64,000 nucleotides of DNA from Eledone cirrhosa (Eukaryota): NCBI GenBank assembly GCA_964016885.1, contig OZ024742.1:203112001-203176000 (forward strand), read 5' to 3'. Below the pieces are notes generated by a model. That model did not search any database. It worked only from the letters and a program-made list of their open reading frames with translations, and was not told where the DNA came from. A program made the translations under genes and the position numbers. This document shows positions 1,621 through 51,800 of this stretch, one piece after another. How positions within the stretch are numbered: the stretch's first letter is position 1; every line of letters starts with the position of its first letter.

Positions 1621-2562
1621 ATATGGTGGGTATTGACATGTTTCCTGGACCTAGACGATGACGCATTAATATCCATGGGAAAGGCTGGGTGACGCCTTCA
1701 GTGGAACGGGCCTCGAACTTGTAGTTCAAATGAGGCCCGAAAGGATCGCCCAGATCCCTGAACGCGTCATACTGGATGATCAAACTTTTATTAACATTAC
1801 CGTTGAGGGTAGGCGGCCCTCGTGTTATCTCTGTAGAGCCAGAGGTCACCTGAAGGATGTCTGTCCTCAACTTAAAAAGAAAACCCCAATCCTGCCTACA
1901 ACACCAACAACTGCACAACCAACACAGTCACCACAACCACCACTACAAAAACAACAACCACAGCTCAAACCAAAACAATTTCCAAAACACCCGCACCGCA
2001 AACACAACCCGAAAATCTACCCCTCGTTCGTCGTCAGACGAGCAGGAGCACTTCCACACAATCAAAAGAAAAAAAAAGAAAACACACCTCAGACACACAA
2101 ATGAAAACAACCCCTCCCCAAAACATAACACAGACACCAACACAAAAGAGCACACAACAGCAAACAAAAAACACCACACAAAAACAAAAACATGCATACA
2201 CATACATAAACACAAGAAATTAAAAACTGCTAAACATTGTATACAACAACAATTTAGTGAAAACCCAAGGGCCTAACTTCACACAGGCAGGGGATTTCCC
2301 CCACCTCAAAATGATTAAGGCCCTAGTGGACACATACAAAACGCTAAAAAGCAACTTTAAAGAGGACGTGCCCCCCCCCCCCCCCCCTGCGTCAGGCCCA
2401 TTAACCGCGTCTCCTAAAAAATTTCCCCACCCCTCCCCAAACACCCCAACCACACCGCACACTGATGCCCCTACACTTCCACAAACCACCACACCACCCA
2501 ACAACCCATCCCCCACCCTCATGGAAATTGTGTAGCCCGATACCCGGGACGCAGAGAGGTAA
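1621..2562 (+). pseudogene. ORF1 (gag-like, CCHC knuckle) remnant of Tx1 family A
   Basis: Colinear similarity to ORF1 10507-12297 (IWW, MRPERI..IPERVI.D, EGR, PHLK.I); frameshifts and stops. Confidence 0.85.
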
Positions 2563-2586
2563 GTGCCTTTTCTCTTCACCACCAAC

Positions 2587-5500
2587 ATGGCAATGCTAAG
2601 AGTAGGCTGTCTAAATTCGCGTGGCCTGGGCTCAACTTGGAAGCAAGCAATGCTTCTAAATGACCTCAGGTCACAACGTATAGATGCGATGGTTATTTGC
2701 GAGGCCCGGATCAGCAACGTGCGACAGCTGGCCCCCACCTTTGATGACTTTGAGATGCACGCATCTCTCTGTCAGCCCGGAGGTGGGGGTAGGGTTGTCG
2801 TTCTGCTGCAAAAACATCTGGGTCTCGCAACACAGACGGTACATTTGGACCCGGAGGGTCGACTAGTTGTTCTGGATCTTGGCAGTGGTGAAGGCGGAGC
2901 GTTTAGGCTGGTAGCCGTCTACGGCCTTTTCGGGTCAACGCGGCCGGACTTCTTCCATCGTCTGGAGACTTTTCTAGGGACGACCCGCTCCTTCCTATTA
3001 GTGGGGGACTGGAATGGTATCTTAGATGCACGTTGGGACTACGTAGGGGCCTGTCCCTATAGAGAGGGGTGTAACAGTCTCAAAGGGTTAATCGGCCGAT
3101 TTGACCTGGTCGATAGATATCGACTAGATTTTACGACTGCGCAACCTGGACTTGGGCAAACCGCAGCGGATCATCTAGGTCGTACCTAGATAGGTTCTTA
3201 GTTAGAAATAAGGATAAGGACTTTTTAAGTTGTCCAAAAATGCTCATGGTTGGCTATTTAGACCACAAGTTAGTGACCTGCATGGTCAACCTTGACAGAA
3301 CGCATAGACAGGGACCCGGTTACTGGAAGCTCAACTTGTCCTTACCGGCAAGTAAGGCTTACAGGGACCGGATTAGAGTAGACTCTATAGAATTTAGTAA
3401 GGAGTTAGCTTCAAATAGAAATAGGAAGGAAAGGGAGTTGGTAGATAGTGTAGAAGAGGCAATTAGAAGCGGCGACGTGACCAGAGTGCTAGCGTCGAGA
3501 ACGGCCCTGGGCCAGTTCTTCGACGCGAAACACGAAGGCTGCATCGTCCGAAGCAAAAAAAGTGCTCTGGGAAACGAGGGGACCAAAGCTGTTAGCTGGG
3601 CCTGCGTGACAGAGACCAAAAGAAGGACTAGATCCACTACCTGGTCTTTGGGAGACCAGGATGTACGGGTGATCCTTGAACCTAAGCAGATGTGCGAGGC
3701 TTTTCAAAAACACTTTGCCAGATTGTTCGGAAGGGGCGGGGAGCCGGTTGGGGAAATGGACTTCGATCCATACCTCCACGGCCTGCCGCGTCTCTCGGAC
3801 AAGGAGGCGGAGTCCTGCGAGGAGCCGATTTCAGCCGCTGAGATAGAGGACGTGCTGAGCCAATGCAGCAAACGCAAATCCCCGGGTCTCGATTGTCTTC
3901 CATACGAACTATATCTAGCTATACCGCACTTGTTCCCCGATCTCGTCGAGGCGGTCTACTGCAACTGGCAACAGAACGGGAGAATTCCCTGTGCTGTGAC
4001 CAAGGGCGTAGTCACGCTAGTGAGGAAGGATGAGAACAAGGGGGACGATATAAATAATTTCAGGCCCATAACTCTGCTAAATACAGTTACAGATTTTGGC
4101 CAAGGTGCTAGCAAAGAGGTTGGCGCTTGTCGTGGGCAACCTGGTGGGAGATGCGCAGACATGTGCTATCCCGTCCAGGTCCATCCACGACACCTCCACC
4201 TCATGCGATACATCATAGAGAGGGTTGGGAACGAACCCGGCTTTGGTGAGGCCCTGATCAACTTGGATCAATCTAAGGCGTTCGATAGGGTCGACCACGG
4301 TTACCTGGATGCGGTGCTAGCGGTGGCAGGCTTCGGACCCATTTTCAGGGGCTGGAAAACTGCCATGCACAGCAGCCGCATCTGCACTAGGGTCAAGTTG
4401 AACGGCTACCTCTCGGAGCCGTTCGAAATCGCGCGGTCCATCCGACAAGGGTGCCCTCTCTCCTCCCTTCTGTATGTAACGACTCTAGAGCCACTGCTGC
4501 GGAAGTTGGAGTTGTTGCAGGGCATTCCGTTGGAACCTGGATTGCGGAAAGCGGTGTCGGTCTACGCCGATGACGTAACAGTAATGGTGTCGATGGCCTC
4601 GGAAATCGGGGCGATCGGCACCTTACTGGAGGAGTACTAAATGTTTACAGGGGCTAAGCTGAACCGGGACAAGTCGATCGGTCTACAACTCGGCATGTGG
4701 AGGGGAAAATCGATGCCCTCCGATGCCGTCGTCGGGCGCTGGACGGAAGGCCCGGTGAAGTTGCTCGGGGTCTGGTTCGGACCAGACCTCCAGGTGGAGA
4801 AGAACTGGGGTGAGGTAACGAACAGGGTGTTTGCACTGACCCAGAAGTGGGCCGAGTGCAAACTGTCCCTGAAAGGTCGGGCGGAGGTGGCGAACACTTA
4901 TATAGTGTCCGTCATCTATTACCGCCTGACCGTCGTGCCTTACCCATGGGAAACGCTCGCCAAAATGGAGCGTGCACTCTTGCAATTCCTTTGGAAGAAG
5001 CGGGCTCCTATGGTGAGGAGATCCATCTGCTGGCACACCGAGTGTGCCCAGGCGCTCACGGCTCTCTGGCAGGCGGACCCGGCTGTCAGTGGAGAATCCA
5101 CCTCGTCATTCTATAGAGGGCTAGTGGTTAGAAGGTGCGACGACGCCCTCAGAGAAGCCCTAGGCATGGAGGAAAACGAACTGGCCAACCTGTTCGGTAG
5201 GACATTCAGCCCGGGACCTATGGACAACTTCCAGAGGTCCCTGGCGTGGCAGTGCTACCGAGGGACTCTGCCCATTCCAGAAAGGCTCTACAGACACGGG
5301 CGCCCGGGTAGGGACCCCGCCAGAAGGATCTGTCCCAGATGCGTGTGGGACGAGGAAACCATTGCACACGCATTGGTACACTGCTCGGGCATTGCCGATC
5401 TGTGGGGCTATGTCGAACGACTACTGTCACGGGTGGAACCGATCCGGTTGACCACCGAGTCTATTGTAACGATCAAGCCGCCTCCCCTCTTCAAAAACGA

Positions 5501-5747
5501 AGGAGAGGCGGTGTTTCTGTGCATAATAGCCATGGCGAAAGAGGTTGTATGGTGGACGCGTCTGAAAGGACTGAGGTCAGACACCTTTCTCTTTGGCCAA
5601 CAACTGGTCCGTTTCTTCCGATATCATTTCGGAAGAAGGATCAGGATGGAGAGAGAGGTGCTGCACCCCAGCCGTTTTTATGAAAGATAGGTGAAAGTGG
5701 CGAGAATGGCCCGTGTGAATGGACCTTCATTCTACATCAGACTGTAG
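2587..5747 (+). pseudogene. ORF2 (APE-RT-zinc finger) of Tx1 family A, disrupted
   Basis: ORF pieces 2563, 3240, 4641 align to 12339-15722; frameshifts near 3140 and 4090-4190, stops at 4638 and 5688; ancestral stop at 5745-5747 inferred from alignment with 6467-6469. Confidence 0.9.
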
Positions 5748-6072
5748 GTGAGAAAAATGAAAGATCAAGGGAGCACCTCTCTCTGTGCTCCTGAGGAGAA
5801 TGGTTGCACACTTTTTCGGGGGTGTGTGCGACCCCCCAAGGCGCCTCCTCCCTATTGAGGATTTTGTTATTCAATTTATTTTTGTTATATTTTATATCTT
5901 ATATTTTTATATTTTGTTATTGCCTCCTCCTTATTGAAGACGCCTTTTTATGTAAACTCCCCCCATTGTACTTGTCCCACTCTTTGACGCCCTGGTGGCA
6001 AATAAAAAGAAAGTTATCTATTTATCTAAAGAAATTTATCTATTTATTTATCTATCTATCTATCTATCTGTC

Positions 6073-6713
6073 CATTGAAACAGTCCTGTACGCAATTGTA
6101 CACTGCCCGGGCGTAACTGACCTGTGGAACTATGCAGAACAACTGCTGTCGCGTATGGGACAAATCCAGTTGACTGCCGAGTTCATAGTAAGCATCAAAC
6201 CGCCAGCCTCTTTCAAAAACGAAAGAGAGGCGGTTTTCCTCTGTACGGTGGCTATGGTGAAAGAAGTTATATGGTAGACGAGATTGAGAGGACTGAGGAC
6301 ATATGCCTTTCTCTCCGGACAACAATTGATTCCCTTCTTTAAGTATCACTTTAGAAGGAGAATCAGGGTGGAGAGAGAGGCACTGCACCCCAGTATTTTT
6401 ACTGAAAGGAGGGTGAATGAAGCGAAAAGGGCCCGATTGATTGGGCCTTCTCTGTTTATAAGCCTGTAGGTTGATGAAGAGAGCAAAAGGAAGAAAGGAT
6501 CACTTGCACAACACGCTCCTGGTGTTGAGAGTTGTTCTATCGACGGGGTATTAAACAACCCATTTGTGGCGCCTCCCCCCTATTGGGGATTTCGATTGTT
6601 GTAATTGTTTGTTTTTTATATTTTTTACACGACTAAAATCCCCGGCATGTCTTTGTATTGTCCCCTTTTCTTGTGCGCCCTTGTGGCTAATAAAGAAATA
6701 TATCTATCTATCT
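6073..6713 (+). mobile_element. Tx1 family B, short 3' fragment (copy B1)
   Basis: Near-identical to about 15389-16020; retains the intact C-terminus ..RARLIGPSLFISL*; AATAAA 6689-6694 then TATCTATCTATCT. Confidence 0.93.
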
Positions 6714-6714
6714 T

Positions 6715-9700
6715 GTAGTCCTAGACGTGAACAGTATTGGAGGTGGAACCTTCAGACTGGCGGCCGTTTATGCCCCGACCGGGCAATCGCAATCACGGCC
6801 AGACTTCTTTAAGCGTCTAGAGTCTTTTCTGGGAACGTCTCGCTCCTTACTTTTAGTGGGGGACTGGAATGGTATCCTAGATGCACGATGGGACTATGTG
6901 GGAGCATGTCCCAGTAAAGCGGGGTGCAACAGCCTCAAAACTTTAATCGGCCAATTCCAACTGGCCGATAGGTATCGACTGGATTTCCCGACTGCACCAC
7001 AGTGGACGTGGGCAAACCGCAGTGGGACATCTAGATCGTATTTAGATAGGTTCTTCATTAGAGAGAGAGACAAGGAGATGTTAAGCTGTCCACGAATGCA
7101 CATGGTTGCCTATTCAGATCACAAGTCAGTCGTCTGTTTAGTCAACCGTGATAGAATACATAGACAGGGACCCGGATACTGGAAGCTGAATGTGTCGTTG
7201 CCGGCACGTAAAGCTTACAGTGAACGGATAAGTATACTAGTCAAGCAACAGTTAACGGGAGCCATCGTCAACAATAGATGGTGGTACTCTCTCAAGAAAG
7301 CAATTAGAATAGAATCAGTAGGGTATACCTTACAGAAAAACAGAATAGAAAGAGAACTAGTAACCAAGGTAGAGGAGGCACTTTGAAGTGGCAACGCGGC
7401 TAGAGTGTTAGCGTCGAGAACGGCACTGGACCAGTTCTTCGATGCGAAACACGAAGGCTGCGTGGTCAGAAGCAAAACACGTGCTCTAGGAAACGAAGGA
7501 GCGAAAGCTGTCAGCTGGGCCCGAGTGACGGAGGCAAAAAGTGGCAACAAGTCCACGATTCGGTCTTTGAAAGACCAAAACGGACGCGTGCTACTTGACC
7601 CCAAGCAAATGTGTGCGGCCTTTCAGCGGCACTTTGCGCGACTCTTTGAGTAGAACGACGGTGTGCCGAACGGGGCAATGGACTTTAGTTCATACCTCGA
7701 CGGCCTTCTGCGTCTCTCGAACACGGACGCCGAGTTCTGCGAAAGACCGAACACGGACACTGAGATACGGAACGCTCTGGGCCGCTGCAGGAAACGCAAG
7801 TCACCCGGTCTAGATGGTCTACCCTACGAGTTTTACATAGGCATGCCGGACTTGTTATCTGGCGTCCTCGAAGCCGTCTACTGCAATTGACAGCAGAACG
7901 GGAGAATTCCCAGTTCTGCAGGCAAGGGCGTAGTAACGCTGATCAGGACAGACGAGAACAAGAGGGACGAAATTAACAACTTCAGGCCCATAAGTCTGCT
8001 CAATACAGAGTTAAAGATTTTGGCCAAGGTGCTAGCGACGAGGTTGGCGCTTGTCGTCGAGAATCTGGTAGGGAAAGCGCAAACGTGTGCAATCCTGACC
8101 AGGTCCATACGCGACAACCTCCACCTCATGCGATACATCATAGAGAGAGTGGGTAGTAAACCCGGCTTCGGTGGGGCTCTGATCAACTTGGATCAGTCTA
8201 AGGCATTCGATAGGGTCGACCATCGATACTTGGAAGCGGTTCTCAAGGCGGCCGGTTTCGGTCCCGTGTTCAGAGGCTGGATCGAGGCGATGCACACCAG
8301 CATCTGCTCGAGAGTCAAGGTGAACGGCTACCTATCGGAGCCGTCCGCAATCACGCGTTCCATTCGAGATGGGTGCCCGCTCTCCTCCATGGTGCTCTCC
8401 TTCATGCCCGCTTTCCTCCATGGTGCTCTCCTCCATGCCCGCTCTCCTCCATGGGTGCCCGCTCTCTAGAGCCACTACTGTGGAAATTGGAGCTGTTGCA
8501 GAGCATCCCTCTAGAACCGGGACTGCTCAAAGCGGCGTCGGCTTATGCCGACGACGTGACGGTAATGGTGTCGAGCACCTCGGAAATCGGGGTGATCGGC
8601 AACTTACTGAAAGAATACGAAACGTTGACGGTAGCAAAACTAAACCCGGACAAATCTGTCGGTTTGCAACTCGGTACGTGGAGAGGCAAACCGATGACGT
8701 CCGACAGCGTCGTTGGACGCTGGACGTACGGACCGGTGAAATTGCTCGGGGTCTGGTTCGGTTCAGACCTCCAGGTGGAGAAAAATTGGAACGAGGACAC
8801 GGCCAAGGTGTTTGCATTCACCCAGAAGTGGGCAGAGTGCAAACTGTCCTTGAAAGGTCGAGCGGAGGTGGCGAACACTTTCATAGCGTCCGTCATCTAC
8901 TACCGCTTGACTGTCGTGCCTTGTTCCCGTGAACACCTCGCCAAGATGGAACGCATGCTCTTCCAGTTTCTGTGGAAGAAGCAGGCTCCGCTGGTGAGGA
9001 GATCCGTCTGCTGTCAGCACGCTTCCAACGGAGGGCTGAGAATGCCGTGGATGATGATGCGCAAACATGCGCTGAGGCTGCGGCATCTCCAGGTATTCTT
9101 CACCGACCCCCAACCGGTGTGGGCACCGTTTGGAGACAGGCTTTCCCACAGCTCGTCTCGCTGACGGAGCTGCAGTCCTGGGTGAAGAAAAGACTGAAAA
9201 CAATGGGCGCCTGGCACATTGAATGCGCTCAGGCGCTCACAGTCCTCTGGCAAGCGGGCGCAGTAATCAGTGGAGACTCCACTTCGACATTCTATAGAGG
9301 GATTGTACGTTACAAGGGCGACTACGTGCCCGGAGAGACTCTGGGCGTCGAAGACGATGAGCTCACCAGTCTGTTTGGTAGGACTTTCCGCCCGGGACTT
9401 ATGGGCAACTTCCAGAGGTCCCTGGCCTGGCAGTGATACCGAGGAGCTCTACCGGTTCGTGACAAGATCTACAGGCACGGACGCCCCGGCACGAATCCTT
9501 CCAAGAGGACGTGTCCAAGATGCGCGCAGGACATTGAAACAGTCCTGCATGCAATTGTACACTGCCCGGGCGTAACCGACCTGTGGAACTATGCAGAACA
9601 ACTGCTGTCGCGTATGGGACAAATCCAGTTGACTGCCGAGTCCATAGTAAGGATCAAACCGCCAGCCTCTTTCAAAAACGAAAGAGAGGCGGTTTTCCTC

Positions 9701-10169
9701 TGCACGGTGGCTATGGTGAAAGAAGTTATATGGTGGACGAGATTGAGAGGACTGAGGACAGATGCCTTTCTCTCCGGACAACAATTGATTCCCTTCTTTA
9801 AGTATCACTTTAGAAGGAGAATCAGGGTGGAGAGAGAGGCACTGCACCCCAGTAAATTTACTTAAAGGTGGGTGAATGGCCCGAGTGATTGGGCCTTCTC
9901 TGTTTATAAGCCTGTAGGTTGAAGAAGAGAGCAAAAGGAAGAAAGGAGCACTTGCACAACACGCTCCTGGAGTTGAGGGTTATTCTATCGACGGGGTATT
10001 AAACAACCCATTTGTGGCGCCTTCTCCCTATTAGGGATTTCGATTGTTGTAATTATTTGTTTTTATATTTTTTACACGACTGTATGTAAAATCCCCGGCA
10101 TGTCTTTGTATTGTCCCCTTTTCTTGTGCGCCCTTGTGGCTAATAAAGAAATCTATCTATCTATCTATC

Positions 10170-10200
<31 letters not shown>

Positions 10201-10202
10201 CT
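6715..10202 (+). mobile_element. Tx1 family B, 5'-truncated copy B2 (ORF2 pseudogene)
   Basis: Near-identical to 12618 onward; multiple stops and frameshifts; AATAAA 10142-10147, (ATCT)n 10151-10202. Confidence 0.95.
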
Positions 10203-10506
10203 CTCTTTCTGTCTAACGTGTGGAATATCGCCGGTAAGTTTTTTGTTAATTTCTATGCAAAAAACCGATCTAATTGTTTGATAAAAATACAACACTTTGT
10301 AGATTAACCCCCAAGCTGAATTGTCAGCTGGGTGGTAATCCCATTTTTCGCCCCTGTAGGGGCGAACATTTTATTTAAAAGTTTGTTTTAAAATATCAAA
10401 TTTTACAAAGTAAAAAAACTTGAGCAACACTAGAACGCTGGAGAACGTTAATAGAGAAAAGAGAGAGAAAGAGGCAGATATTAACGTTATATCTGCTTCT
10501 GCTGCT

Positions 10507-12297
10507 ATGGACGTTGCCATAGATACTGTCACAAAAGAAAAAAATATATCAACATTTGAAAATGTTACAATTTCTACCGCCGAAGCGGAGAAAAATGACA
10601 ATAACACACGGGAAAACTCGGCAAAAAAACCCATTGACATACATACACATGAAAAAGACATCAACAACTCTACAGATACATCTACACATAAAATTTCCAA
10701 CAACGATAACATCATTATTAACAACAACATCACACAAAAAAAGAAAATGACTTTCGCTGACACAGTCAACAAGAAACAAGATTTTATAAATCTTGATATC
10801 TCCAACGCAAGAGATATGCTCCAGCAAGGGAGAAAATTTGTAACTTTCGAAGAAAGAGGTGGGTTTAGAATTAACTCACCCCTTGAAATAAAGGAAGACA
10901 CAAACCGCCGATCAGTCACTTTTAGGACTGTGTCAAATTCGTCAAGAAAACCGACATTTGTTAATCAGTCAGATATAGAAGATTCTTTCAAGGAGATTCT
11001 AGGAAATGTCGATTTTCTCCAGCGAGGAAAACAGTACGGAAGTGTTTCCGTACTGTTTAAAAGCGAGGCACTGGCCCCAAAAAACTCTGTGACACCAATA
11101 GTGTCAAAAGCATACACCTTTTTCCCTACATACATGGGGAAAAGGACACAAAAAATAAAAATAAAAAACATACCTCCAAGCATTAACATCTGGTGGATCT
11201 TGGCTGGCTTCGTAGAGCCAGAAACAGACATAATACTTTCGATACGAAAATCCATTCGACAAAGGTGGGCGGGCACCGATTTGGAGATTCTGTTGCAAAT
11301 GAAACCGGAGAGAATCTCCAAAATACCCGAAAGAGTCGTTATTGATAATAACAACAAAATAAACATTTCGGTAGAAGGAAGAAAATTTCACTGCTTTCGC
11401 TGTGGTAGCACATCTCACCTAAAAGCCTCTTGTCCACAAACACACAACAGCAACATCATAAAAAAAACGCTATTACCAACACCAACACCAAAACAACCAC
11501 CACCACCACCACAAGTACAACGACAGACGAAACGAGCAACCACACCAAAACAAACAGACACTCAACCAACAACAACAGAAAAAACAGAGACAACACCCCT
11601 GAAGAACACATCCCCACTCTATCCCACTCCATCAAACACTACCACAAACACACATACCGAAACACCACCACCACCACACAACATACCCTTACCCCACACA
11701 CCTGACGATGATTATTCATCGACGGATGAAGCTACTTCTCCTTCTTTAAGTGAAGAAGAGGGAGAACCGCGGAAATCCAAAAAACAAAAAAAGAGACACC
11801 ACAAAACCCCCAAAACTCCAATCACCAACACCAACACACAACCACAGACACAAACAACAACACAAACAACACCACAGTCAAACATCCCCCTATCAGCAAA
11901 ACCAGCACCAACACCACCCCAAACACAAGCACCCACCATAAAAAGAAAACTCCCAGATGAACAACAAACTAAAACAATACAACAAAAACACAAACAACAA
12001 TACGCATACATCAACACAAACAACAAGAGTTTGATGGAGGTCATCTCCCAAAACCCCAAGGTGGAGACGGAGGGCAAAACTTTCGTCAAGGCAGAATCGT
12101 CTCCACACCTTAAACTTATAAGGGTTTCTATGGAAACCTATAAAGACCTGAAAATTAAATTTTCACAGGACGTGGGCAACCCCTGCCACAAACCCATCAA
12201 CCGCGTCTTGTTGAAAGGTTTCCCCACCCCACCCAACACCCCATCCAGCACCCAAATGGAGATTGAACAACCCGATCTCCAGGAAACGAAAAGGTAA
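10507..12297 (+). CDS. Retrotransposon ORF1 protein (CCHC zinc knuckle, P/T/Q-rich linker, basic NLS-like patch)
   Basis: Open frame from 10420; first ATG at 10507 in GCTATGG context; CFRCGSTSHLKASC at 11392-11433. Confidence 0.88.
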   Translation: MDVAIDTVTKEKNISTFENVTISTAEAEKNDNNTRENSAKKPIDIHTHEKDINNSTDTSTHKISNNDNIIINNNITQKKKMTFADTVNKKQDFINLDISNARDMLQQGRKFVTFEERGGFRINSPLEIKEDTNRRSVTFRTVSNSSRKPTFVNQSDIEDSFKEILGNVDFLQRGKQYGSVSVLFKSEALAPKNSVTPIVSKAYTFFPTYMGKRTQKIKIKNIPPSINIWWILAGFVEPETDIILSIRKSIRQRWAGTDLEILLQMKPERISKIPERVVIDNNNKINISVEGRKFHCFRCGSTSHLKASCPQTHNSNIIKKTLLPTPTPKQPPPPPQVQRQTKRATTPKQTDTQPTTTEKTETTPLKNTSPLYPTPSNTTTNTHTETPPPPHNIPLPHTPDDDYSSTDEATSPSLSEEEGEPRKSKKQKKRHHKTPKTPITNTNTQPQTQTTTQTTPQSNIPLSAKPAPTPPQTQAPTIKRKLPDEQQTKTIQQKHKQQYAYINTNNKSLMEVISQNPKVETEGKTFVKAESSPHLKLIRVSMETYKDLKIKFSQDVGNPCHKPINRVLLKGFPTPPNTPSSTQMEIEQPDLQETKR

Positions 12298-12338
12298 GTG
12301 CACCTTTCGTCCTTTTTCTCCAACTTTTCTTCACCAAC

Positions 12339-15300
12339 ATGGCTGGTTTACGAGTTGGAACCGTGAATGTGCGTGGCCTAGGGATGCCCTGGAAACAGGG
12401 CCAACTTTTAAACGACCTTAGGTCACACAGTATGGATGTGATAGCCATCACCGAGTCCAGAATCCACAACAGGCAGCAACTAACCCCCATCTTCGACAAC
12501 TTTGAGATCTACGCATCACTCTGTCAGCCAGGAGGTGGAGGTGGAGTGGCTGTTATGTTTCGGAAGAACCTGGACGTCGGAGTACAGCAAGTACACTTGG
12601 ACCCGGAGGGTAGACTGGTAGTCCTAGACGTGAACAGTATCGGAGGTGGAGCCTTCAGACTGGTGGCCGTTTATGCCCCGACCGGGCAATCGCAATCACG
12701 GCCAGACTTCTTTAAGCGTCTAGAGTCTTTTCTGGGAACGTCTCGCTCCTTACTTTTAGTGGGGGACTGGAATAGTATCCTAGATGCACGATGGGACTAT
12801 GTGGGAGCATGTCCCAGTAGAGCGGGGTGCAACAGCCTCAAAACTTTAATCGGCCAATTCCAACTGGCCGATAGGTATCGACTGGATTTCCCGACTGCAC
12901 CACAGTGGACGTGGGTAAACCGCAGTGGGACATCTAGATCGTATTTAGATAGGTTCTTCATTAGAGAAAGGGACAAGGATATGTTAAGCTGTCCACGAAT
13001 GCACATGGTTGCCTATTCAGATCACAAGTTAGTCGTCTGCTTAGTCAACCGTGATAGAATACATAGACAGGGTCCCGGATACTGGAAGCTGAACGTGTCG
13101 TTGCCGGCACGTAAAGCTTACAGTGAACGGATAAGTAAACTAGTCAAGCAACAGTTAACGGGAGCCATCGTCAACAATAGATGGTGGTACTCTCTCAAAA
13201 AAGCAATTAGAATAGAATCGATAGGGTATAGCAGAGAGTTAGCCTTAGAGAAAAACAGAATAGAAAGAGAACTAGTAGCCAAGGTAGAGGAGGCACTTAG
13301 AAGTGGCAACGCGGCTAGAGTGTTAGCGTCGAGAACAGCACTGGACCAGTTCTTCGATGCGAAACACGAAGGCTGCGTGGTCAGAAGCAAAACACGTGCT
13401 CTAGGAAACGAAGGAGCGAAAGCTGTCAGCTGGGCCCGAGTGGCGGAGGCAAAAAGTGGCAACAAGTCCACGATTCGGTCTTTGAAAGACCAAAACGGAC
13501 GCGTGCTACTTGACCCCAAGCAAATGTGCGCGGCCTTTCAGCGGCACTTTGCGCGACTGTTTGAGCAGAACGACGGTGAGCCGAACGGGGCAATGGACTT
13601 TAGTTCATACCTCGACGGCCTTCTGCGTCTCTCGAACACGGACGCCGAGTTCTGCGAAAGACCGATCACGGACACTGAGATACGGGACGCTCTGGGCCGC
13701 TGCGGGAAACGCAAGTCACCCGGTCTAGATGGTCTACCCTACGAATTTTACATAGGCATGCCGGACTTGTTCTCTGGCGTCCTCGAAGCCGTCTACTGCA
13801 ATTGGCAGCAGAACGGGAGAATTCCCAGTTCTGCAGGCAAGGGCGTAGTAACGCTGATCAGGAAAGACGAGAACAAGGGGGACGAAATTAACAACTTCAG
13901 GCCCATGACTCTGCTCAACACAGAGTTAAAGATTTTGGCCAAGGTGCTAGCGACGAGGTTGGCGCTTGTCGTCGAGAACCTGGTAGGGAAAGCGCAAACG
14001 TGTGCAATCCCGACGAGGTCCATACACGACAACCTCCACCTCATGCGATATATCATAGAGAGGGTGGGTAGTAAACCCGGCTTCGGTGGGGCTCTGATCA
14101 ACTTGGATCAGTCTAAGGCATTCGATAGGGTCGACCATCGATACTTGGAAGCAGTTCTCAAGGCGGCCGGTTTCGGTCCCGTATTCAGAGGATGGATCGA
14201 GGCGATGCACACCAGCATCTGCTCGAGGGTCAAGGTGAACGGCTACCTATCGGAGCCGTTCGCAATCACGCGTTCCATTCGACAGAGATGCCCTCTCTCC
14301 TCCATTCTGTATGTATTGACTCTAGAGCCACTACTGCGGAAATTGGAGCTGTTGCAGGGCATCCCCCTAGAACCGGGACTGCGCAAAGCGGCGTCGGCTT
14401 ATGCCGACGACGTGACAGTAATGGTGTCGAGCACCTCGGAAATCGGGGTGATCGGCAACATACTGAAAGAATACGAAACGCTGACGGGAGCAAAACTAAA
14501 CCCAGACAAGTCTGTCGGTTTGCAACTCAGTACGTGGAGAGGCAAACCGATGACATCCGACAGCGTCGTTGGACGCTGGACGGACGGACCGGTGAAATTG
14601 CTCGGGGTCTGGTTCGGTCCAGACCTCCAGGTGGAGAAAAACTGGAACGAGGTCACGGCCAAGGTGTTTGCACTCACTCAGAAGTGGGCAGAGTGCAAAC
14701 TGTCCTTGAAAGGTCGAGCGGAGGTGGAGAACACTTTCATAGCGTCCGTCATCTACTACCGCTTGACTGTCGTGCCTTGTCCCCATGAACACCTCGCCTA
14801 GATGGAACGCATGCTCTTCCAGTTTCTGTGGAAGAAGCAGGCTCCGCTGGTGAGGAGATCCGTCTGCTGTCAGCACCCTTCCAACGGAGGGCTGGGAATG
14901 CCGTGGCTGATGATGCGCAAACATGCGCTGAGGCTGCGGCATCTCCAGGTATTCCTCACCGACCCCCAACCGGTGTGGGCACCGTTTGTGAGACAGGCTT
15001 TCCCACAGCTCGTCTCGCTAACGGAGCGGCAGTCCTGGGTGAAGAAAAGACCGAAAACGATGGGCGCCTGGCACATTGAATGCGCTCAGGCGCTCACAGT
15101 CCTCTGGCAAGCGGGCGCAGCAATCAGTGGAGACTCCACTTCGACATACTATAGAGGGATTGTACGTTACAAGGGCGACGACGTGCTCGGAGAGACTCTG
15201 GGCGTCGAAGACGATGAGTTCACCAGTATGTTTGGTAGGACTTTCCGCCCGGGACCTATGGACAACTTCCAGAGGTCCCTGGCCTGGCAGTGCTACCGAG

Positions 15301-15722
15301 GAGCTCTACCGGTTCGTGACAAGATTTACAGGCACGGACGCCCTGGCAGGGATCCTTCCAAGAGGAAGTGTCCAAGATGTGCGCAGGACATTGAAACAGT
15401 TCTGCACGCAATTGTACACTGCCCGGGCGTAAGCGACCTGTGGAACTATGCAGAACAACTGCTGTCGCGTATGGGACAAATACAGTTGACTGCCGAGTCC
15501 ATAGTAAGGATCAAACCGCCAGACTCTTTCAAAAACGAAAGAGAGGCGGTTTTCCTATGTACGGTGGCTATGGTGAAAGAAGTTATATGGTGGACGAGGT
15601 TGAGAGGACTGAGGACAGATGCCTTTCTCTCCGGACAACAATTGATTCCCTTCTTTAAGTATCACTTTAGAAGGAGAATCAGGGTGGAGAGAGAGGCACT
15701 GCACCCCAGTAAATTTACTTAA
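12339..15722 (+). pseudogene. ORF2 APE endonuclease-reverse transcriptase-CCHC, one internal TAG (14799-14801)
   Basis: NVRGL, TES, VYAP, GDWN, SYLDRF, SDH; KSPGLDG, FRPMTLLN, LDQSKAFDRVDH, YADD; CPRC..ETVLHAIVHC. The TAG is AAG in copy B2 (about 8943). Confidence 0.93.
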
Positions 15723-16011
15723 AGGTGGGTGAATGGCCCGAGTGATTGGGCCCTCTCTGTTTATAAGCCTGTAGGTTGAGGAAGAGAGCAAAAGGAAGAA
15801 AGGAGCACTTGCACAACACGCTCCTCGAGTTGAGGGTTGTTCTATCGACGGGGTATTAAACAACCCATTTGTGGCGCCTCCCCCCTATTGGTGATTTCGA
15901 TTGTTGAAATTGTTTGTTTGTTTTTATATTTTTTACACGACTGTATGTAAAATCCCCGGCATGTCTTTGTATTGTCCCCTTTCTTGTTGCGCCCTTGTGG
16001 CTAATAAAGAA

Positions 16012-16022
16012 ATCTATCTATC

Positions 16023-16053
<31 letters not shown>

Positions 16054-16142
16054 CCAACTATCTATTTATCTATCTATCTATCTATCCTTCCATCTATCTA
16101 TTATCTTTCCCTCCATCTATCTATCTTCCTATCTCTCTATCT
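16012..16142. repeat. Degenerate (ATCT)n array closing the Tx1 cluster
   Basis: Directly visible. Confidence 0.95.
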
Positions 16143-29418: not shown

Positions 29419-30111
29419 GGAGGTGAGTTTTATTGTAGTACACTAAAGCAATGCAGATATCGGATAAGAAGCACTCTACAGTTTGTAGGACTGGAGTATA
29501 CATAATATATAAGATCAAAAGATGGTTAAAAGAGTTTCATGGAACTCTTTTAACCATCTTTTGATCTTATATATATATATACACAAATATATACACACAT
29601 AAATATATTTCCATATCATATATAGATGTTTATTTTCATTCATGCAATTACGGGTGGCTGTGTATCTTGTTGCCTTTAGTCATTAACGCATACATCTAAG
29701 GAAGCTAAAACATTAAAAGGCAAAAATAAGCATGAAAGCATATAATTAGGGGAAAGAGGTACTAATAAATGTTATTCTATACGGAATTATAGTGAGTTGC
29801 TATTTAGAATATTTAATTAGGTTTATAGTATTTAATTAGGTTTAGAGTATTTAATTAGGTTTATAGTATTTAAATGTTTTTACATTAACTTATATCATGA
29901 CTCTGTTTTCCTTTTAATGTTTTATTGTTTTCTGAGATTTATCTTAACCTACAATATTTTCAACATATGGATTAAATTGAGTTCTTCTTGCAGACTAGAC
30001 CGCACAACTAACAGTGGATACCTCTGTATATATATATATATATCCTATATTGCGTGTGCATTTGTTGTATCTTGAGTGTGTGTAATCGAATGTATATTGC
30101 TATTCCATGTG

Positions 30112-33100
30112 TGTATATAGTGGTGTGTGTGTGTGTGTGTAGTGGTGTGTGTGTGTATGTAGTGGTGTGTGTGTGTATGTAGGTGTGTGTGTGTGTGGAT
30201 GTAGTGATGAGTGTGTATGTAGTGGTGTGTGTGTATTTAATGGTGTGTGTGTATTTAATGGTGTGTGTGTATGTATGTAGTGGTGTGTGTGTATGTAGTG
30301 GTGTGTGTGTGTGTATGTAATGGTGTGTGTGTATGTATGTATGTAGTGGGGTGTGTGTGTATGTAATGGTGTGTGTGTATGTATGTAGTGGTGTGTGTGT
30401 ATGTAGTGGTGTGTGTGTGTATGTATTGGTGTGTGTGTATGTAGTGGTATGTGTGTGTGTGTAGTGGTGTGTGTGTGTATGTAGTGGTGTGTATGTATGT
30501 ATGTAGTGGTGTGTTTGTATGTAGTGGTGTGTGTGTGTATGTAGTGGTGTGTGTGTATGTAGTGGTGTGTGTGTATGTAGTGGTGTGTGTGTATGTAATG
30601 ATGTGTGTGTATGTAGTGATGTGTGTGTATGTAGTGATGTGTGTATATGTATGTAGTGATGTGTGTGCATGTAGTGGTGTGTGTCTATGTATGTAGTGGT
30701 GTGTGTGTATGTAGCGGTGTGTGTGTATGTAGTGATGTGTGTGTATGTATGTAGGGATGTGTGTATGTAGTGGTGTGTGTGTATGTAGTGGTGTGTGTGT
30801 ATGTATGTTTTGATGTGTGTGTATGTATGTAGCGGTGTGTGTGTATGTAGTGGTGTGTGTGTATGTATGCAGTGATGTGTGTGTGTGTATGTAGTGGTGT
30901 GTGAGTGTGTATGTAGTGGTGTGTGTGTATGTATGTAGTGGTGTGTGTGTGTGTGTATGTGGTGGTGTGTGTGTATGTATGTTTTGATGTGTGTGTATGT
31001 ATGTAGCGGTGTGTGTGTATGTATTGGTGTGTGTGTGTGTATGTAGTGGTGTGTGTGTGTGTATGTAGTGGTGTGAGTGTGTATGTAGTGGTGTGTGTGT
31101 ATGTAGTGGTGTGTGTGTATGTAGTGGTGTGTGTGTATGTAGTGGTGTGTGTGTATGTAGTGATGTGTGTATATGTATGTAGTGATGTGTGTGTATGTAG
31201 TGGTGTGTGTCTATGTATGTAGTGGTGTGTGTGTATGTAGCGGTGTGTGTGTATGTAGTGATGTGTGTGTATGTAGTGGTGTGTGTGTGTATGTATGTAG
31301 TGATGTGTGTGTATGTATGTAGGGATGTGTGTATGTAGTGGTGTGTGTATGTAGTGGTGTGTGTGTATGTTTTGATGTGTTTGTGTGTATGTAGTGGTGT
31401 GAGTGTGTATGTAGTGGTGTGTGTGTATGTATGCAGTGATGTGTGTGTATGTAATGCTGTGTGTGTATGTAGTGGTGTGTGCGTATGTATGTAGTGGTGT
31501 GTGTGGATGTAGTGGTGTGGGTGTGTGTGTGCATGTAGTGGTGTGTGTGTATGTATGTTTTGATGTGTGTGTATGTATGTAGCGGTATGTGTGTATGTAG
31601 TGGTGTGTGTGTATGTATGCAGTGATGTGTGTGTATGTATTGGTGTGTGTGTATGTAGTGGTGTGTGAGTGTGTATGTAGTGGTGTGTGTGTATGTATGT
31701 AGTGGTGTGTGTGTGTGTGTATGTGGTGGTGTGTGTGTATGTATGTTTTGATGTGTGTGTATGTATGTAGCGGTGTGTGTGTATGTAGTGGTGTGTGTGT
31801 GTGTATGTAGTGGTGTGTGTGTGTGTATGTAGTGGTGTGAGTGTGTATGTAGTGGTGTGTGTGTATGTATATAGTGGTGTGTGTGTATGTAGTGGTGTGT
31901 GTGTATGTAGTGGTGTGTGTGTATGTAGTGGTGTGTGTGTATGTAGTGGTGTGTGTGTGTGTATGTAGTGGTGTGTGTGTGTGTAGTGGTGTGTGTGTAT
32001 GTATGTAGTGGTGTGTGTGTGTGTATGTAGTGGTGTGTGTGTATGTATGTTTTGATGTGTGTGTATGTATGTAGCGGTGTGTGTGTATGTAGTGGTGTGT
32101 GTGTGTGTATGTAGTGGTGTGAGTGTGTATGTAGTGGTGTGTGTGTATGTATGTAGTGGTGTGTGTGTATGTAGTGGTGTGTGTGTATGTATGTAGTGGT
32201 GTGTGTGTATGTAGTGGTGTGTGTGTATGTATGTAGTGGTGTGTATGTATGTAGTGGTGTGTGTGTATGTAGTGGTGTGTGTGTATGTATGTAGTGGTGT
32301 GTGTGTATGTAGTGGTGTGTGTGTATGTATGTAGTGGTGTGTGTGTATGTAGTGGTGTGTGTGTGTGTATGTAGTGGTGTGTGTGTATGTAGTGGTGTGA
32401 GTGTGTATGTAGTGGTGTGTGTGTATGTATGTAGTGGTGTGTGTGTTTGTATGTAGTGGTGTGTGTCTATGTATGTAGTGGTGTGTGTATATGTAGTGGT
32501 GTGTGTGTATGTAGTGGTGTGTGTGTGTGTGTATGTAGTGGTGTGTATGTATGTAGTGGTGTGTGTGTATGTAGTGGTGTGTGTGTATGTAGTGGTGTGT
32601 GTGTATGTATGTAGTGGTGTGTGTGTATGTAGTGGTGTGTGTGTATGTATGTAGTGGTGTGTGTGTATGTAGTGGTGTGTGTGTATGTATGTAGTGGTGT
32701 GTATGTATGTAGTGGTGTGTGTGTATGTAGTGGTGTGTGTGTATGTAGTGGTGTGTGTGTATGTATGTAGTGGTGTGTGTGTATGTAGTGGTGTGTGTGT
32801 ATGTATGTAGTGGTGTGTATGTATGTAGTGGTGTGTGTGTATGTAGTGGTGTGTGTGTATGTATGTAGTGGTGTCTGTGTATGTAGTGGTGTGTGTGTAT
32901 GTATGTAGTGGTGTGTGTGTATGTATGTAGTGGTGTGTGTGTATGTAGTGGTGTGTGTGTATGTATGTAGTGGTGTGTGTGTATGTAGTGGTGTGTGTGT
33001 ATGTATGTAGTGGTGTGTATGTATGTAGTGGTGTGTGTGTATGTAGTGGTGTGTGTGTATGTAGTGGTGTGTGTGTATGTATGTAGTGGTGTGTGTGTAT

Positions 33101-33330
33101 GTAGTGGTGTGTGTGTATGTATGTAGTGGTGTGTATGTATGTAGTGGTGTGTGTGTATGTAGTGGTGTGTGTGTATGTATGTAGTGGTGTCTGTGTATGT
33201 AGTGGTGTGTGTGTATGTATGTAGTGGTGTGTGTGTATGTATGTAGTGGTGTCTGTGTATGTAGTGGTGTGTGTGTATGTATGTAGTGGTGTGTGTGTAT
33301 GTATGTAGTGGTGTGTGTGTATGTATGTAT
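30112..33330. repeat. 3.2-kb tandem array of 18/22-bp units (atgt)1-2agtg(gt)n
   Basis: Directly visible; source of the spurious 1301-aa and 726-aa ORFs. Confidence 0.97.
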
Positions 33331-33399
33331 CTACATGTGGAAGTGTACCCAGTAATAAGGTGATGTTGGCCATGGCATAGACAATAGCCATAACTCCTA

Positions 33400-33855
33400 T
33401 CGATGTTGATGATGGTGGTGGTGATGGTGGTGGCGTGGTGGTGGTGGTGGTGGTGGTGGTGGTTATGGCTGTGGCGGTTGTGGTGGTGGTCGTGGTGGTG
33501 GTCGTGGCGCTTGGTTGTGGCGTGGCGGTAGAGGAGGTGGTAGGTTTGCTGGTGGTGGTGGTGGAGAAGCTGGCTTGGTGGTGGTGCTGGCGGGGTGGCG
33601 GTGGTGGTGGAGGCGGTGACTGTGGTGGCGGTGGAGATGGTAGCTTGGTGGTGGGGATTGTTGAGGTGGTGGCAGTGGTGGTGGTGTGGGCTTGGTGGTG
33701 GTGATGGTGGGGATGGTGATGGTGTCAGTGGGGTCAGTGGTAGTGGTAGTGGTGGTAATGTTATGATGGTGATGGAGATGTCAGAAATAGGAGTAGTAGT
33801 AGTAGTAGGAGTAGTAGGAGTAGTAGGAGTAGCAATAGTAGTAGTAGTAGTATTA
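33400..33855. repeat. (GGT)n / (AGT)n low-complexity tract
   Basis: Directly visible. Confidence 0.9.
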
Positions 33856-33987
33856 AGAAGAATAGGTAGACGGAAGATGGACCGAATAAGAGAACAATAA
33901 GAAGACACACGCATATATGTCTGTGTACCTGTTGTCCCGTATGTATCTATATATGTCTGTATGTATGTATATATGTCTGTATGTATG

Positions 33988-34021
<34 letters not shown>

Positions 34022-34219
34022 TGTATGTATGTATGTATGTATGTATGTATGTATGTATGTATGTATGTATGTATATATGTATGTATTTATATATGCATGT
34101 ATATAGGCACACACATATATACACATATATATAGATGCACACACACATATATATATGCACACAGACATATCTATCTATCTATATATATATATATATTTAT
34201 ATGCACACACATATGCATT

Positions 34220-45733: not shown

Positions 45734-45960
45734 CTACTTGCTGAGGGTTTGTCCACTTTTATCAGCAGTGGTCTTTCACTTATACCCCCTACACAGGCAC
45801 ACTCACATACTCACACACTGCATTGCATATCTTATTATTTTCTTCTTTTACTCGTCTCAGTCATTAGACTGCGGCCAGTGGCAGCATCGTTAAGGAATTT
45901 AGTCAAACATTTCATTCCCAGTACTTGTTTTAATATATTTTTTCCAGTCCGGGATATATT

Positions 45961-45991
<31 letters not shown>

Positions 45992-46095
45992 AAGAAGAAG
46001 AAGAAGAAGAAGAAGAAGAAGAAGAAGAAGAAGAAGAAGAAGAAGAAGAAGAAGAAGAAGAAGAAGAAGAAGAAGAAGAAGAAGAAGAAGAAGAA

Positions 46096-46957
46096 CTTTA
46101 ACCCATCAGTGGTTGGCATCCTCTGGACTGAAATCGGAGACTGAAGGACTGATTATATCGGCACAAGATCAGTGTCTGCCAACAAAAAATTACCAAGCCA
46201 ACATAATAAAAAATGGGTGCAGCCCATTATGCCGTGTATGCAAAAAACAACCAGAGACCATTGACCATATAATTTCAATGTGCAGTCCTATAGCTCCAAC
46301 CGAATACCTAAACAGGCATGACAGAGCTGCACAATACATACATTGGATAATGTGTAAGCATTTTGACCTGCCCCATCAAAAGAATTGGTGGGAGCATCAA
46401 CCCATACTTGAAAAAGATCACATCTCAATCTTGTGGAACTTTAGCATCCAAACAGACCGAAAAATAGATGCAAACAGACCTGATATAATATTGAAAGACT
46501 TTCAAAAGAGGGTATGCCTGCTAATTGATATGTCTGTTCCAATAGACAAGAATGTATCTATAAAAACATTTGAAAAATTGAGCAAGTATAAGGACCTGGA
46601 GATAGAAATTGGAAAAAATGTGGAAATTGAGAACTAAAACAATACCAGTGGTTGTAGGCGCTCTGGGAATGATACCTAAGGGGTCTAATGATTACATATC
46701 GCAAATCCCAGGAAACCCGCGTATAGGAGAAATACAAAAGATAATACTAATGGGAACTGCCCATATACTAAGGAAGATTCTGTCAATATAAGTACATCAC
46801 AAGTCTAAACACTAAAGATGCATGTGTGAATATGTATGTTCTTTCTTGAACATGGCGGACCTTGTTGTCTCTTGAGGTCACTGGTTGTGACTTGGTGATA
46901 ACTCGTATGAACATAAAGCAAGATAAATGCAACAGTAATAATAATAATAATAATAAT
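46096..46957 (+). mobile_element. R4/Dong-like non-LTR element, 5'-truncated (CCHC + REL endonuclease), (TAA)n at 3' end
   Basis: ETEGLIISAQDQ, CRVC...ETIDHIISMC, RHD, NRPDIIL, IDMSVP, K..KY, PVVVGALG; one frameshift near 46615; stop at 46791. Confidence 0.9.
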
Positions 46958-48863: not shown

Positions 48864-51800
48864 TTACCAATACTGTAATACTCTGTTAGTGGTATCAATT
48901 GCAAATGTTATACCATCAGGATCGCACACTCGAGATACAGCAAAATACAGTTGCCCATGGCTGAATACTGGATCATTCAAGTAGACACCGACTCGCTTGA
49001 AAGTCTGTCCCTGTGCCTTGTTGACAGTCATGGAGAAGGCTAAATTGACGGAAACTGTCTCATTTGCCAAATGAATGGCAGCAGATCTTCACTTGGTCTC
49101 AGCATGATCCTCGGAATGAGAACCGATTCCTCTCTGCCTGGGAGTTTAGCTTCTAAAACTCTTCCGTTAATCAATCTCTCAACAATCAATCTGGTACCAT
49201 TGCAAAGACCCATTTTATGATTGATATTTCTAAGCAATATAATCGGCATACCCTTTTTCAACCTCAAAATATGTGGGGGAAATCCGGGTATTTGAAGTGA
49301 ATTCAGATACTCAGTCGGAACATCCATATTGTTCTGCTGATTAGGCTCTATTGCATCCGCACTGACGGCCAACCATTCCTCTCCAGGAAACATTCCGGCT
49401 ACTTGTATATTTATTTCATCGACCGTTGCATTCGTATGAGTTAGAATAACGCGTTCCGATATCCAGGAGATATTCTGCCAAAAAGCATTCAAATTAGGGA
49501 ACACCCAGTCAATCAATGCTTGGCGGTCCAGTGGCATGACCAAATGGTCTGGGATTCTTACAGTCTGATTATCACCAACGTGTGGCAATTCATCGTTTCT
49601 CAACTGCATCAACTATCGGCCGTATGTCTCAGCCTCTTTGTTTTGCCCGAACATACGAAGTCGCATATTATCGTGTAATCGCAAATTTCTGAAATGGTCC
49701 CACAACGGGGACATGCATTTCAGACATTCATTCCTAACAATTGGTAGCACCTTTCTGAAATCGCCACCAAGAACGATAGTCTTACCAGCGAATGGCAGGT
49801 CACTACCGCAGATATCTCTCAAAGTTCTGTCCAATGCCTCCAGCAAATATCTGTGTGCCATTGGAGCCTCGTTCCAAATAATCAGAGACGTATTGCGTAT
49901 AAGGCCCGCGAGTTCACTTTGTCCTGTAATGTTACAGACACTCAACTCATCCGGAGCCAATGGAGCCTTGAAGCATGAGTGGACGGTCCTTTCACCATTC
50001 AGCAAAGTGGCAGCGACCCCACTGGTGGCCACAGGGAGAGCAATCTTCATCTGACCTCTGACTGCCGATAACATAGTGTTGAAACAGAATGTCTTTCCGG
50101 TGCCTCCTGGAGCATTTATGAAAGCACAAAGTTGCTCATAAGTGGAAATCGAGTGGAGAACGCCATCGACCAATTCTCTCTGAGATTGGGTCAACATTGG
50201 CATACGTTCATCTATAATACGTTGCTGTTCCAGTGGATCAAACTGGAATAGTTCCCTCCGATCGAGTGGCAACCGTCTAAGCTGCAATCTCATGTTCAAT
50301 GCTAAGACACGTTGCGCATTTCTTCATCAGGAATTGGCAAATTGAAATCTCTTAAACATTTGAAATGAACTTCAAGCAGTTGCTCAATATTGAGCAAAAC
50401 AATAGCCTTCATCAAATTTTCATCATCGACCTGAAGATGATGCCTAAAATCATCAGCCATAATTCCCCAATGGCGTTCAAATAACTCTCTTGGATCGGCA
50501 GGATTGCAGAATCGTAGAATCGTGACAAACAACTGCCTTATTTGAGCTGGCATCTGTGTTGTTCCTGCAGCTTCCATGGCGTTATTGCATTCAGCGTCAT
50601 CCTGAAGGAGTCCCAGATGTTGACACACAGCCTGGTATGTTTCATATTCTACGCCATTGATTGTTTTCAAATCAGCGAAGTTCTGTTTACCTCTCGAAAA
50701 ATCACTATGCAACATAATTCGGAGATAAAACACATCACCAGATGCTGGATGGACATTACAAACCCCTCCAATAGTCATGAATATCAATTTTTGTTTTCTA
50801 TCATTCCATTTCTTTCCCTTCTTTATCCACGTATAAGGGAAATCGCAGTAGAGTTGCCTTTGATCCGGGTTCAAAGCATGTCCCTATTATGCTTGAACCA
50901 CTCAGTCAATTCCGTCTTAGGAGGTGGTGCGTTAGCAATTCTTTCGACACCTCTTCTAGTGTCCTGAAAACAGACCATTTGCCTATTCTCTAAGTGAACC
51001 GTCAGTTTCTGAACGCTGGGTTTGCGTTCATGAAAATCCAACAATCTCCAGCAAGCTTCGCTAGATCCAATCGAGCGAACATCCTGGAACCTGCAAACTT
51101 CCTTGGTTCGCTTCCTCATTCCTGACATTGATCATTGCCCGATCATGACCTTTGTAAACATATTTGAATAGATATTTGCAAGCTTTCACTGAGCTACAAA
51201 TTTCCACATTAATATGACAACGATATTTTAAAAAATCAAATATCGATTGTATGGCACAACCCATTGATTTGTAACCTGTCGACCGTTTACATTTTCGACC
51301 AAACCGCCATCGGCAGGCGACCGTCTTCTGTATGAGGGATGAGCATCCCCATCGTTCCAGGAAGTGTTCGTAACAAAAGATTTCGGAAAGTGCTTACTGC
51401 ATTGGCCAACTTTCATGCAAGGCGCTTTCCGATTTGCCACTCCGCATTGGTTGTGCACCATTGACTTTGCCACCAAGTTGCGTAGTGCCTCATTCTCCGG
51501 CAGTTCAGCACACACAATGCTGTCGACATCCTCAGCACATCTCAAATTGAAATCTCTATGTAAAATGATCAGCAAATGTGCATGTGGCAATTCTCTTTTT
51601 TGGAATTCAATTATGTATGTAAAAGCAACTATACCTCCAAAGATTCCCTCTTTTTCCACATAATCCATTATCTATTTCAGATATCCTTTGAATACTCTTG
51701 CCACAGTATCAGGACGGTCCTTTGGCAGTTGTCCTGGCAAAAGTGCACCCTTAATATCAGTCCATTCAGGATTGCATGTAACCGTTATAAACAAATCTGG

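Follow-up and report, generated by a model that had tools for sequence, protein, structure and literature searches.

A U1-type splice donor conserved at the end of ORF1 in an L1/Tx1-group LINE clade, with the whole of ORF2 as a possible optional intron

Long interspersed nuclear elements (LINEs) are regarded as intron-less, and the ratio of their two proteins, ORF1p and ORF2p, as set by poor reinitiation on a single bicistronic RNA. Here we describe a LINE of the L1/Tx1 group with two open reading frames (ORFs), present in thousands of copies in a 3.0-Gb animal genome (Eledone cirrhosa) and analyzed from a 64,000-nucleotide stretch of contig OZ024742.1, hereafter the window. Throughout the deep clade to which this element belongs, a splice donor that we call D2 lies at the end of ORF1. 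We see an even balance of arguments for and against the idea that in this clade the whole of ORF2 is an optional spliceosomal intron, with only the unspliced RNA being copied, a retrovirus-like control of the ORF1p:ORF2p ratio, and relatives that carry a retained intron in their 3' untranslated region (UTR).

Described relatives and parallels

The closest described parallel comes from an element with long terminal repeats (LTRs). Arabidopsis EVD, a Ty1/copia element, makes a spliced GAG RNA, and U1 has a dual role there that includes a block to early termination; EVD has LTRs, a single ORF and a short intron, and is polyadenylated early (PMC5580714). What our element shares with EVD is the U1-type donor conserved at the end of the structural region and, as proposed here, a short structural messenger RNA (mRNA) beside the unspliced genomic RNA, with U1 perhaps also acting to prevent early termination. 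It differs from EVD in that its candidate intron is all of ORF2 (3.5 kb), its normal poly(A) signal is kept and its spliced form is a prediction; being non-LTR and bicistronic, it falls outside the copia/EVD elements, which have LTRs and a gag-pol ORF.

In human L1, splicing is documented as harmful to the element (PMC5860796, from the available sections). Donors in the L1 5' UTR give the products named SpIREs and SpORF2, which keep ORF2; their genomic copies amount to about 2% of full-length ones, most L1 RNA is left unspliced, and the available text of these studies has the authors viewing the spliced products as dead ends (PMC5860796, PMC2896524). Our element resembles human L1 in having a conserved donor near its 5' end (D1, see below), but differs in that a further donor is pinned to the end of ORF1, the predicted product lacks ORF2 and no spliced copy was found. 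Finally, LINEs of the Tx1 clade, for example Kibi and Koshi, target microsatellites (PMC4494074, in part). The present element is like them in its two ORFs, in an ORF2 with apurinic (AP) endonuclease, reverse transcriptase (RT) and zf-RVT regions, and in its insertion into (ATCT)n and (ATT)n microsatellites. The accessible part of a study that lists L1-Tx1 families in an octopus does not mention splicing (PMC13282606). At title and abstract level, the open-access literature yielded no description of a conserved ORF1-end donor in Tx1, no report of such a donor or of an ORF2-excising splice in any LINE, and no account of splicing-based ORF1p:ORF2p control in LINEs.

The element is an L1-group LINE: its ORF2 encodes an AP endonuclease, then an RT, then a C-terminal zinc-binding region, a separate ORF1 lies upstream, some copies are 5'-truncated, and the tail is a simple repeat or poly(A), without LTRs. 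Among Pfam families PF03372 and PF00078 score above the cut-off in ORF2 and PF13966 just below it, and the best PDB match is human L1 ORF2p (E 2e-55, versus 1e-21 for R2). On the analogy of its microsatellite targeting, it probably belongs to the Tx1 clade. The principal features of the window are as follows.

10205..16012, +: family-B LINE, full length, inserted in the (ATCT)n tail of the preceding copy
10231..10239, +: D1 donor consensus CCG|GTAAGT, about 30 nucleotides from the 5' end, then a U-rich stretch
10301..10368, +: two stable 5' UTR hairpins (fold z = -5.2); their counterparts in other lineages look compensated
10507..12297, +: ORF1, 596 residues, intact; it has a CX2CX4HX4C knuckle, and its C-terminal half is of low complexity
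12291..12299, +: D2 donor AAG|GTAAGT overlapping the ORF1 stop, GT at 12294
12300..12338, +: inter-ORF spacer, pyrimidine-rich, start context CACCAAC; predicted to pair with the purine-rich end of ORF1 (lineage-level p 0.15, not significant)
12339..15774, +: ORF2 (AP endonuclease, RT, zf-RVT), disrupted here and spanned by the candidate intron
15755..15775, +: candidate acceptor region, a pyrimidine stretch, AAG ending at 15767, TAG stop ending at 15774, then G
15775..16012, +: 3' UTR, purine-rich at its start, AATAAA at 16003, then an (ATCT)n tail
2556..2564, +: family-A D2, GAG|GTAAGT, GT at 2559
2587..5747, +: family-A ORF2, decayed, ending ATCAG ACTGTAG|GTGA
6073..10215, +: two 5'-truncated family-B copies, head to tail, with CTGTAG ending at 6469 and 9917

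A donor held at the end of ORF1

A first-pass annotation of the window had pointed to a donor AG|GTAAGT over the ORF1 stop in two divergent families (GT at 2559 and 12294), and in each a pyrimidine tract and then CACCAACATGG come next (ATG at 2587 and 12339); these positions are confirmed. It had also staked its proposal on the motif being present in sister families, and the donor is indeed kept across the clade and in relatives with 40% ORF2 identity. In the window, AGGTRAGT is no more frequent than chance predicts (4 observed, 4.55 expected), so the weight of the motif rests on its fixed position across lineages. Copies were therefore picked by degenerate patterns for the ORF2 N terminus, which avoids choosing them on the motif (7,141 and 6,709 matches in overlapping sets), and the first 30 loci of each set were tallied. 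GGTRRGT stands within 75 nucleotides upstream of ORF2 in 27/30 and 29/30 of these copies, the misses being point changes or a deletion. We rely on these tallies rather than on the invariant columns (16/16) of the lineage representatives, which are partly circular because the representatives were anchored on the motif.

The sampled lineages with D2 reach down to roughly 65% nucleotide identity and 69% ORF2 amino-acid identity. Over this range the variants of D2 are restricted to GTAAGT, GTGAGT and GTAGGT, and the spacer past position +6 diverges. Most lineages have the donor in phase 2 (Arg-stop), whereas it is in phase 1 in F2, G and J, where Gly-Lys/Glu-stop is encoded, and in phase 0 in D; since D2 persists across three reading phases, the stop codon cannot explain it. 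Its duplex energy with U1, computed with a U1 11-mer, is -10.3 to -13.7 kcal/mol, and only 2 of the 207 GT sites in family-B ORF2 reach -10 kcal/mol. In most elements D1 and D2 are the only strong sense-strand donors in 5.8 kb. A conserved, U1-complementary donor thus ends the structural ORF as in copia/EVD, and from these comparisons D2 is best described as a selected U1-type site.

Beyond the clade, intact LINE relatives whose ORF2 is 40% identical turned up as tandem arrays when genome contigs were scanned (L406-L464, contigs CAXXMW01...); they are filed in a bacterial metagenome-assembled genome and are probably host-DNA contamination. A FastTree phylogeny, whose members are unnamed relatives only, places them with the clade on one branch with a support of 1.00, and their ORF1 is homologous to that of the family-B copy (E 2e-10). 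At 34/35 of their ORF2 starts these relatives carry TAA G|GTAAGT, a non-coding donor one base past the ORF1 stop, with no pyrimidine tract after it. Among still more remote relatives (21-29% identity for those in the tree), only 1/28 has a strong site within 15 nucleotides of the ORF1 stop.

The second donor, D1, is present in most lineages with a readable 5' end, 20-55 nucleotides after a GACGTG-like motif and at one of two alternative positions. Its consensus is seen at window 10231-10239 and in L033-L037, L165, L170, L172-L176, L189, L194 and L208, the two positions representing motif turnover; it is weak in I2, not seen in J, and present in the 40% relatives L424, L413 and L408. The GACGTG-like motif itself (window 10215-10222) is found at the 5' end of most lineages, and we take it to resemble a downstream promoter element. 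Among lineages with a readable 5' end, D1 has no conserved acceptor beside it, and none of its 18 variant copies is spliced. A conserved 5' UTR intron starting at D1 was considered and rejected: a nearby AG exists in A and B, but D, E, F2, H and A3 either lack one or have it too near the donor. Lineages F and G2 (L179, L193-L197, L186-L188) carry a strong acceptor, TTTTCAG or TTTTAG, immediately ahead of the ORF2 ATG; from its position, this could yield an ORF2-only mRNA from a 5' donor.

Candidate acceptors and the search for spliced copies

What D2 might be for is suggested by the 3' end of the element. In the mechanism that we propose, U1 small nuclear ribonucleoprotein would bind D2, and a share of the transcripts would be spliced from there to an acceptor near the 3' end. 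The excision of ORF2 would leave a short ORF1-only mRNA with a short 3' UTR, as in copia/EVD, and the unspliced RNA would be both the ORF2 message and the template for new copies. The presumed purpose would be to make structural ORF1p in larger amounts than ORF2p; the U1 site may also guard the full-length RNA from early termination, as in Arabidopsis EVD. Whether part of the RNA is indeed spliced from D2 to a 3' acceptor is, on the sequences available, a question on which we come down on neither side.

As the acceptor, the first-pass annotation had proposed CTGTAG|G, and this does end at 5747, 6469, 9917 and 15774. In the window B copy ORF2 is broken by stops at 14799 and 15720, with an 11-nucleotide deletion nearby; two intact copies elsewhere in the genome (L036, L047; 1148 residues) end ...SLFISL-TAG, and CTGTAG is therefore the ancestral ORF2 stop. 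Re-deriving the predicted products gives R-stop in family A and a 27-residue tail in family B, as had been claimed. The competing AG, which ends at 15767 (B) and 5740 (A), was likewise found, and would give S-L-stop and R-L-stop, respectively; in family B the acceptor could be either 15767 or 15774. The 27-residue tail did not prove to be conserved, and it is unlikely to matter because in five of the six lineages with a long tail (A2, A3, B, F, F3) the AG 7 nucleotides upstream gives S-L-stop. Searches for ORF1 proteins that end in a spliced C terminus returned no homologue.

Across the clade, the ORF2 stop is TAG in 16/18 lineages and the next base is G in 15/16 (the A representative has a private change). 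Among some 110 YAG sites, ranked by an ad hoc pyrimidine score, the stop comes first in 7/15 lineages and within the top four in 14/15. If the terminal AG is used, a stop follows within three codons in the donor's own frame in 10/16 lineages, versus 8/32 for the other frames (p 0.02-0.05, the lineages not being independent). The abundant lineages I and I2 have lost the terminal AG, their ORF2 ending in TAA, and have a U-rich CACGCAG|A site about 160 nucleotides further on in 30/32 3' ends; their sister lineage J keeps TAG and has CAC at the CACGCAG position (4/4). A second acceptor-like site is also present, however, in about a third of the TAG-bearing lineages, so that the replacement in I/I2 counts as one event of modest weight, which removes an objection more than it proves compensation. 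All told, every lineage read has an acceptor-like site 80-260 nucleotides ahead of its poly(A) signal, a possible counterpart of the copia/EVD acceptor, although its position is shifted in I/I2 and the tail length varies. The acceptor is plausible from its sequence but weaker than the donor. A donor at the ORF2 stop was rejected as a general feature of the clade, because no lineages other than A, G and H come to -9.5 or better.

The 40% relatives have a different 3' arrangement. A third donor (D3) lies about 15 nucleotides past their ORF2 stop (23/23), and 250-277 nucleotides on there is a non-coding pyrimidine tract with a YRTAG acceptor, about 190 nucleotides before AATAAA (19/23 by pattern). 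This segment of the 3' UTR is intron-like (GTRAGT ... YRTAG, about 240 nucleotides), and the 3' ends read retain it; a comparable segment of 143 nucleotides occurs in the L460 family.

Several observations weigh against the excision of ORF2. Synonymous recoding reproduces the pyrimidine tract in 12/16 lineages, including B (p 0.61), and a hydrophobic strand also ends distant ORF2 proteins. The second acceptor-like sites just mentioned and the predicted tails, which vary from 0 to 78 codons across lineages, point the same way, as does the L460 family, the one miss among the 40% relatives, which lacks D2. The third donor of the 40% relatives could, moreover, account for their 3' acceptor. Family B has 781 unspliced D2 junctions in the genome, but the spliced junction is absent from its approximately 880 genomic copies (exact match, 0; pattern with a gap of 0-30 nucleotides, 0), and copies precisely lacking ORF2 at 12293^15775, which the annotation had suggested looking for, were not found. 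All of the copies with other bases after the donor and a continuation not beginning GTA (62, 24 and 15) were read and none has a precise splice: they are point changes, small deletions and a TGA subfamily, and L258 and L292 run into unrelated sequence. A multi-family junction pattern, parts of which matched 15/30 and 17/53 sample copies, had no occurrence in the genome. Nor were there any precise GT-AG deletion copies of the SpIRE type from D1 or D2 (0 junctions). Since an ORF2-less RNA would need mobilization in trans, which L1 disfavors (PMC5860796, in its available sections), the missing copies lower the splicing model but do not refute it.

Contigs from four runs of unrecorded kind, which drop rare forms, were also inspected. 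The 12293^15775 joint was not among the 15 listed of the 194 joints on the window copy, and run X4 on the B+A tandem L201 had no donor joint among the 15 listed of its 24; X4 may be DNA, and no inference is drawn from either result. In X4, 91 nucleotides are skipped at L201:5705-5795, over the start of the family-A ORF1, with GT..AT as read along the element and a depth of 31.5.

One anecdotal copy, L238, joins the donor to 12423, one base off YAG|G. ORF2 codons 26-29 (window 12412-12425) hold there a conserved GACCTCAGGTC palindrome, present in most lineages, with an in-frame YAG|G; the AG|G of codon 28 is found in 12/13 families. An in-frame ORF1-ORF2 fusion through this site was rejected as the main function: it would delete the first strand of the endonuclease, only donors in phase 2 are compatible with it, and conservation is just as high at many YAG sites of ORF2.

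The proposal of an ORF2-excising splice is therefore upheld in part. The donor is selected and every lineage examined has an acceptor-like site near its 3' end, but the junction 12293^15775 itself was not seen, and in I/I2 the site is not the ORF2 stop. On the accompanying caution that CTGTAG might be no more than Leu-stop, the amino acids do explain much of the pyrimidine tract, although in most cases no downstream site resembles an acceptor more closely than the ORF2 stop.

Surroundings of the element

Four LINE copies are stacked at 1.6-16.0 kb of the window: a decayed family-A copy, the two 5'-truncated family-B copies and the full-length B, each sitting inside the (ATCT)n tail of the preceding one. 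Full-length copies of lineages A, B, D, E, F2 and H begin after (ATCT)n, those of G, I, I2 and J after (ATT)n, and those of C after a minisatellite of roughly 56 bp. This has the look of a target-specific radiation that builds head-to-tail stacks (window 6010-6070, 10150-10205 and 16012-16140; L366-L388; L161-L164, L208). In the mixed copies L184, L185, L199, L200 and L307 the 5' part and the 3' end apparently come from different lineages, which suggests inter-lineage recombination.

ORF1 has no Pfam match. IMG/VR contains no relative, and Rfam gave no family at threshold within the element, 5' UTR hairpins included; a known ribozyme or RNA family there was rejected on this ground. Elsewhere in the window, 49613-50323 (-) is a fragment of a PIF1-like helicase (Pfam E 3e-55), probably a Helitron piece; 45903-46637 (+) is a further LINE 3' fragment with a weak zf-RVT match; and 30008-34178 is about 4 kb of extremely G/T-skewed, low-complexity sequence with long stop-free minus-strand frames and no Pfam match.

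Other explanations and implications

The strongest alternative to splicing from D2, possible although we consider it rather doubtful, is that U1 binds D1 and D2 without productive splicing, keeping polymerase II in elongation and blocking early polyadenylation in the A-rich ORF1. HIV-1 offers a precedent for a donor that silences an upstream poly(A) site. The first-pass annotation had itself raised U1 binding as an alternative, and it stays viable because most lineages have a 5' donor with no conserved acceptor beside it, D1 occupying one of its two positions and recurring in the 40% relatives named above. The presence of just two strong sense-strand donors in most elements is as expected of such a shield, as are the AATAAA found 250-470 nucleotides upstream of D2 in 10/16 lineages and the lack of any spliced genomic copy from D1 or D2. 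In EVD, moreover, U1 does block early termination (PMC5580714). On the other hand, A, A2, B, B2, F2 and H keep D2 with no AATAAA within about 900 nucleotides upstream, ORF2 has no conserved AATAAA/ATTAAA downstream of D2 to suppress, and lineage J shows no D1 and I2 a weak one. The acceptor-like 3' site of every lineage would also be left unexplained.

It is improbable, in our estimation, that the motif and spacer act instead in translation (termination-reinitiation on ORF2, or shielding of the ORF1 stop from decay) or bind a DNA factor, and look like a donor only by resemblance. The short spacer and conserved start context would suit such a role, and a human L1 donor is kept by way of a RUNX3 site (PMC5860796, in part). 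In family D (L172-L175, L204, L206, L207), the ORF2 start is ATA rather than ATG in all copies read, overlaps the ORF1 stop (AAA TAG / ATA G) and opens a nearly intact frame, from which non-AUG reinitiation is suggested. However, the D2 variants match the 5' splice-site spectrum exactly, the motif may be inside, before or after the stop, and the 40% relatives keep it without the pyrimidine tract. The hairpin predicted over D2 and the stop is weakly supported, since 3/17 beat shuffled tails and the lineage-level p is 0.15.

Escape from HUSH-type silencing was set aside because protection there is independent of the 5' splice site (PMC8770142, in the part available). Very improbable, lastly, is that Arg-stop and Leu-stop resemble splice sites by accident and inheritance. 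In favor of this reading, the window has the motif about as often as chance predicts, 83/477 degenerate ORF2 codons (17%) likewise show no variation across 13 families, and every TAG stop is a YAG. A chance origin of the donor is nevertheless largely refuted, as the site has been retained in each of the three phases and, at 40% protein identity, outside coding sequence, while the flanking spacer bases diverge.

The splice-donor signal is thus real and deeply conserved, and splicing from it stands at even chances. That U1 sites are kept over 60% protein divergence shows that engagement of the spliceosome is under selection in this clade. Should the RNA be spliced, LINEs would have converged on the solution of copia elements and retroviruses; if it is not, these elements would provide a natural case of U1 decoy sites that shield an intron-less transcript.

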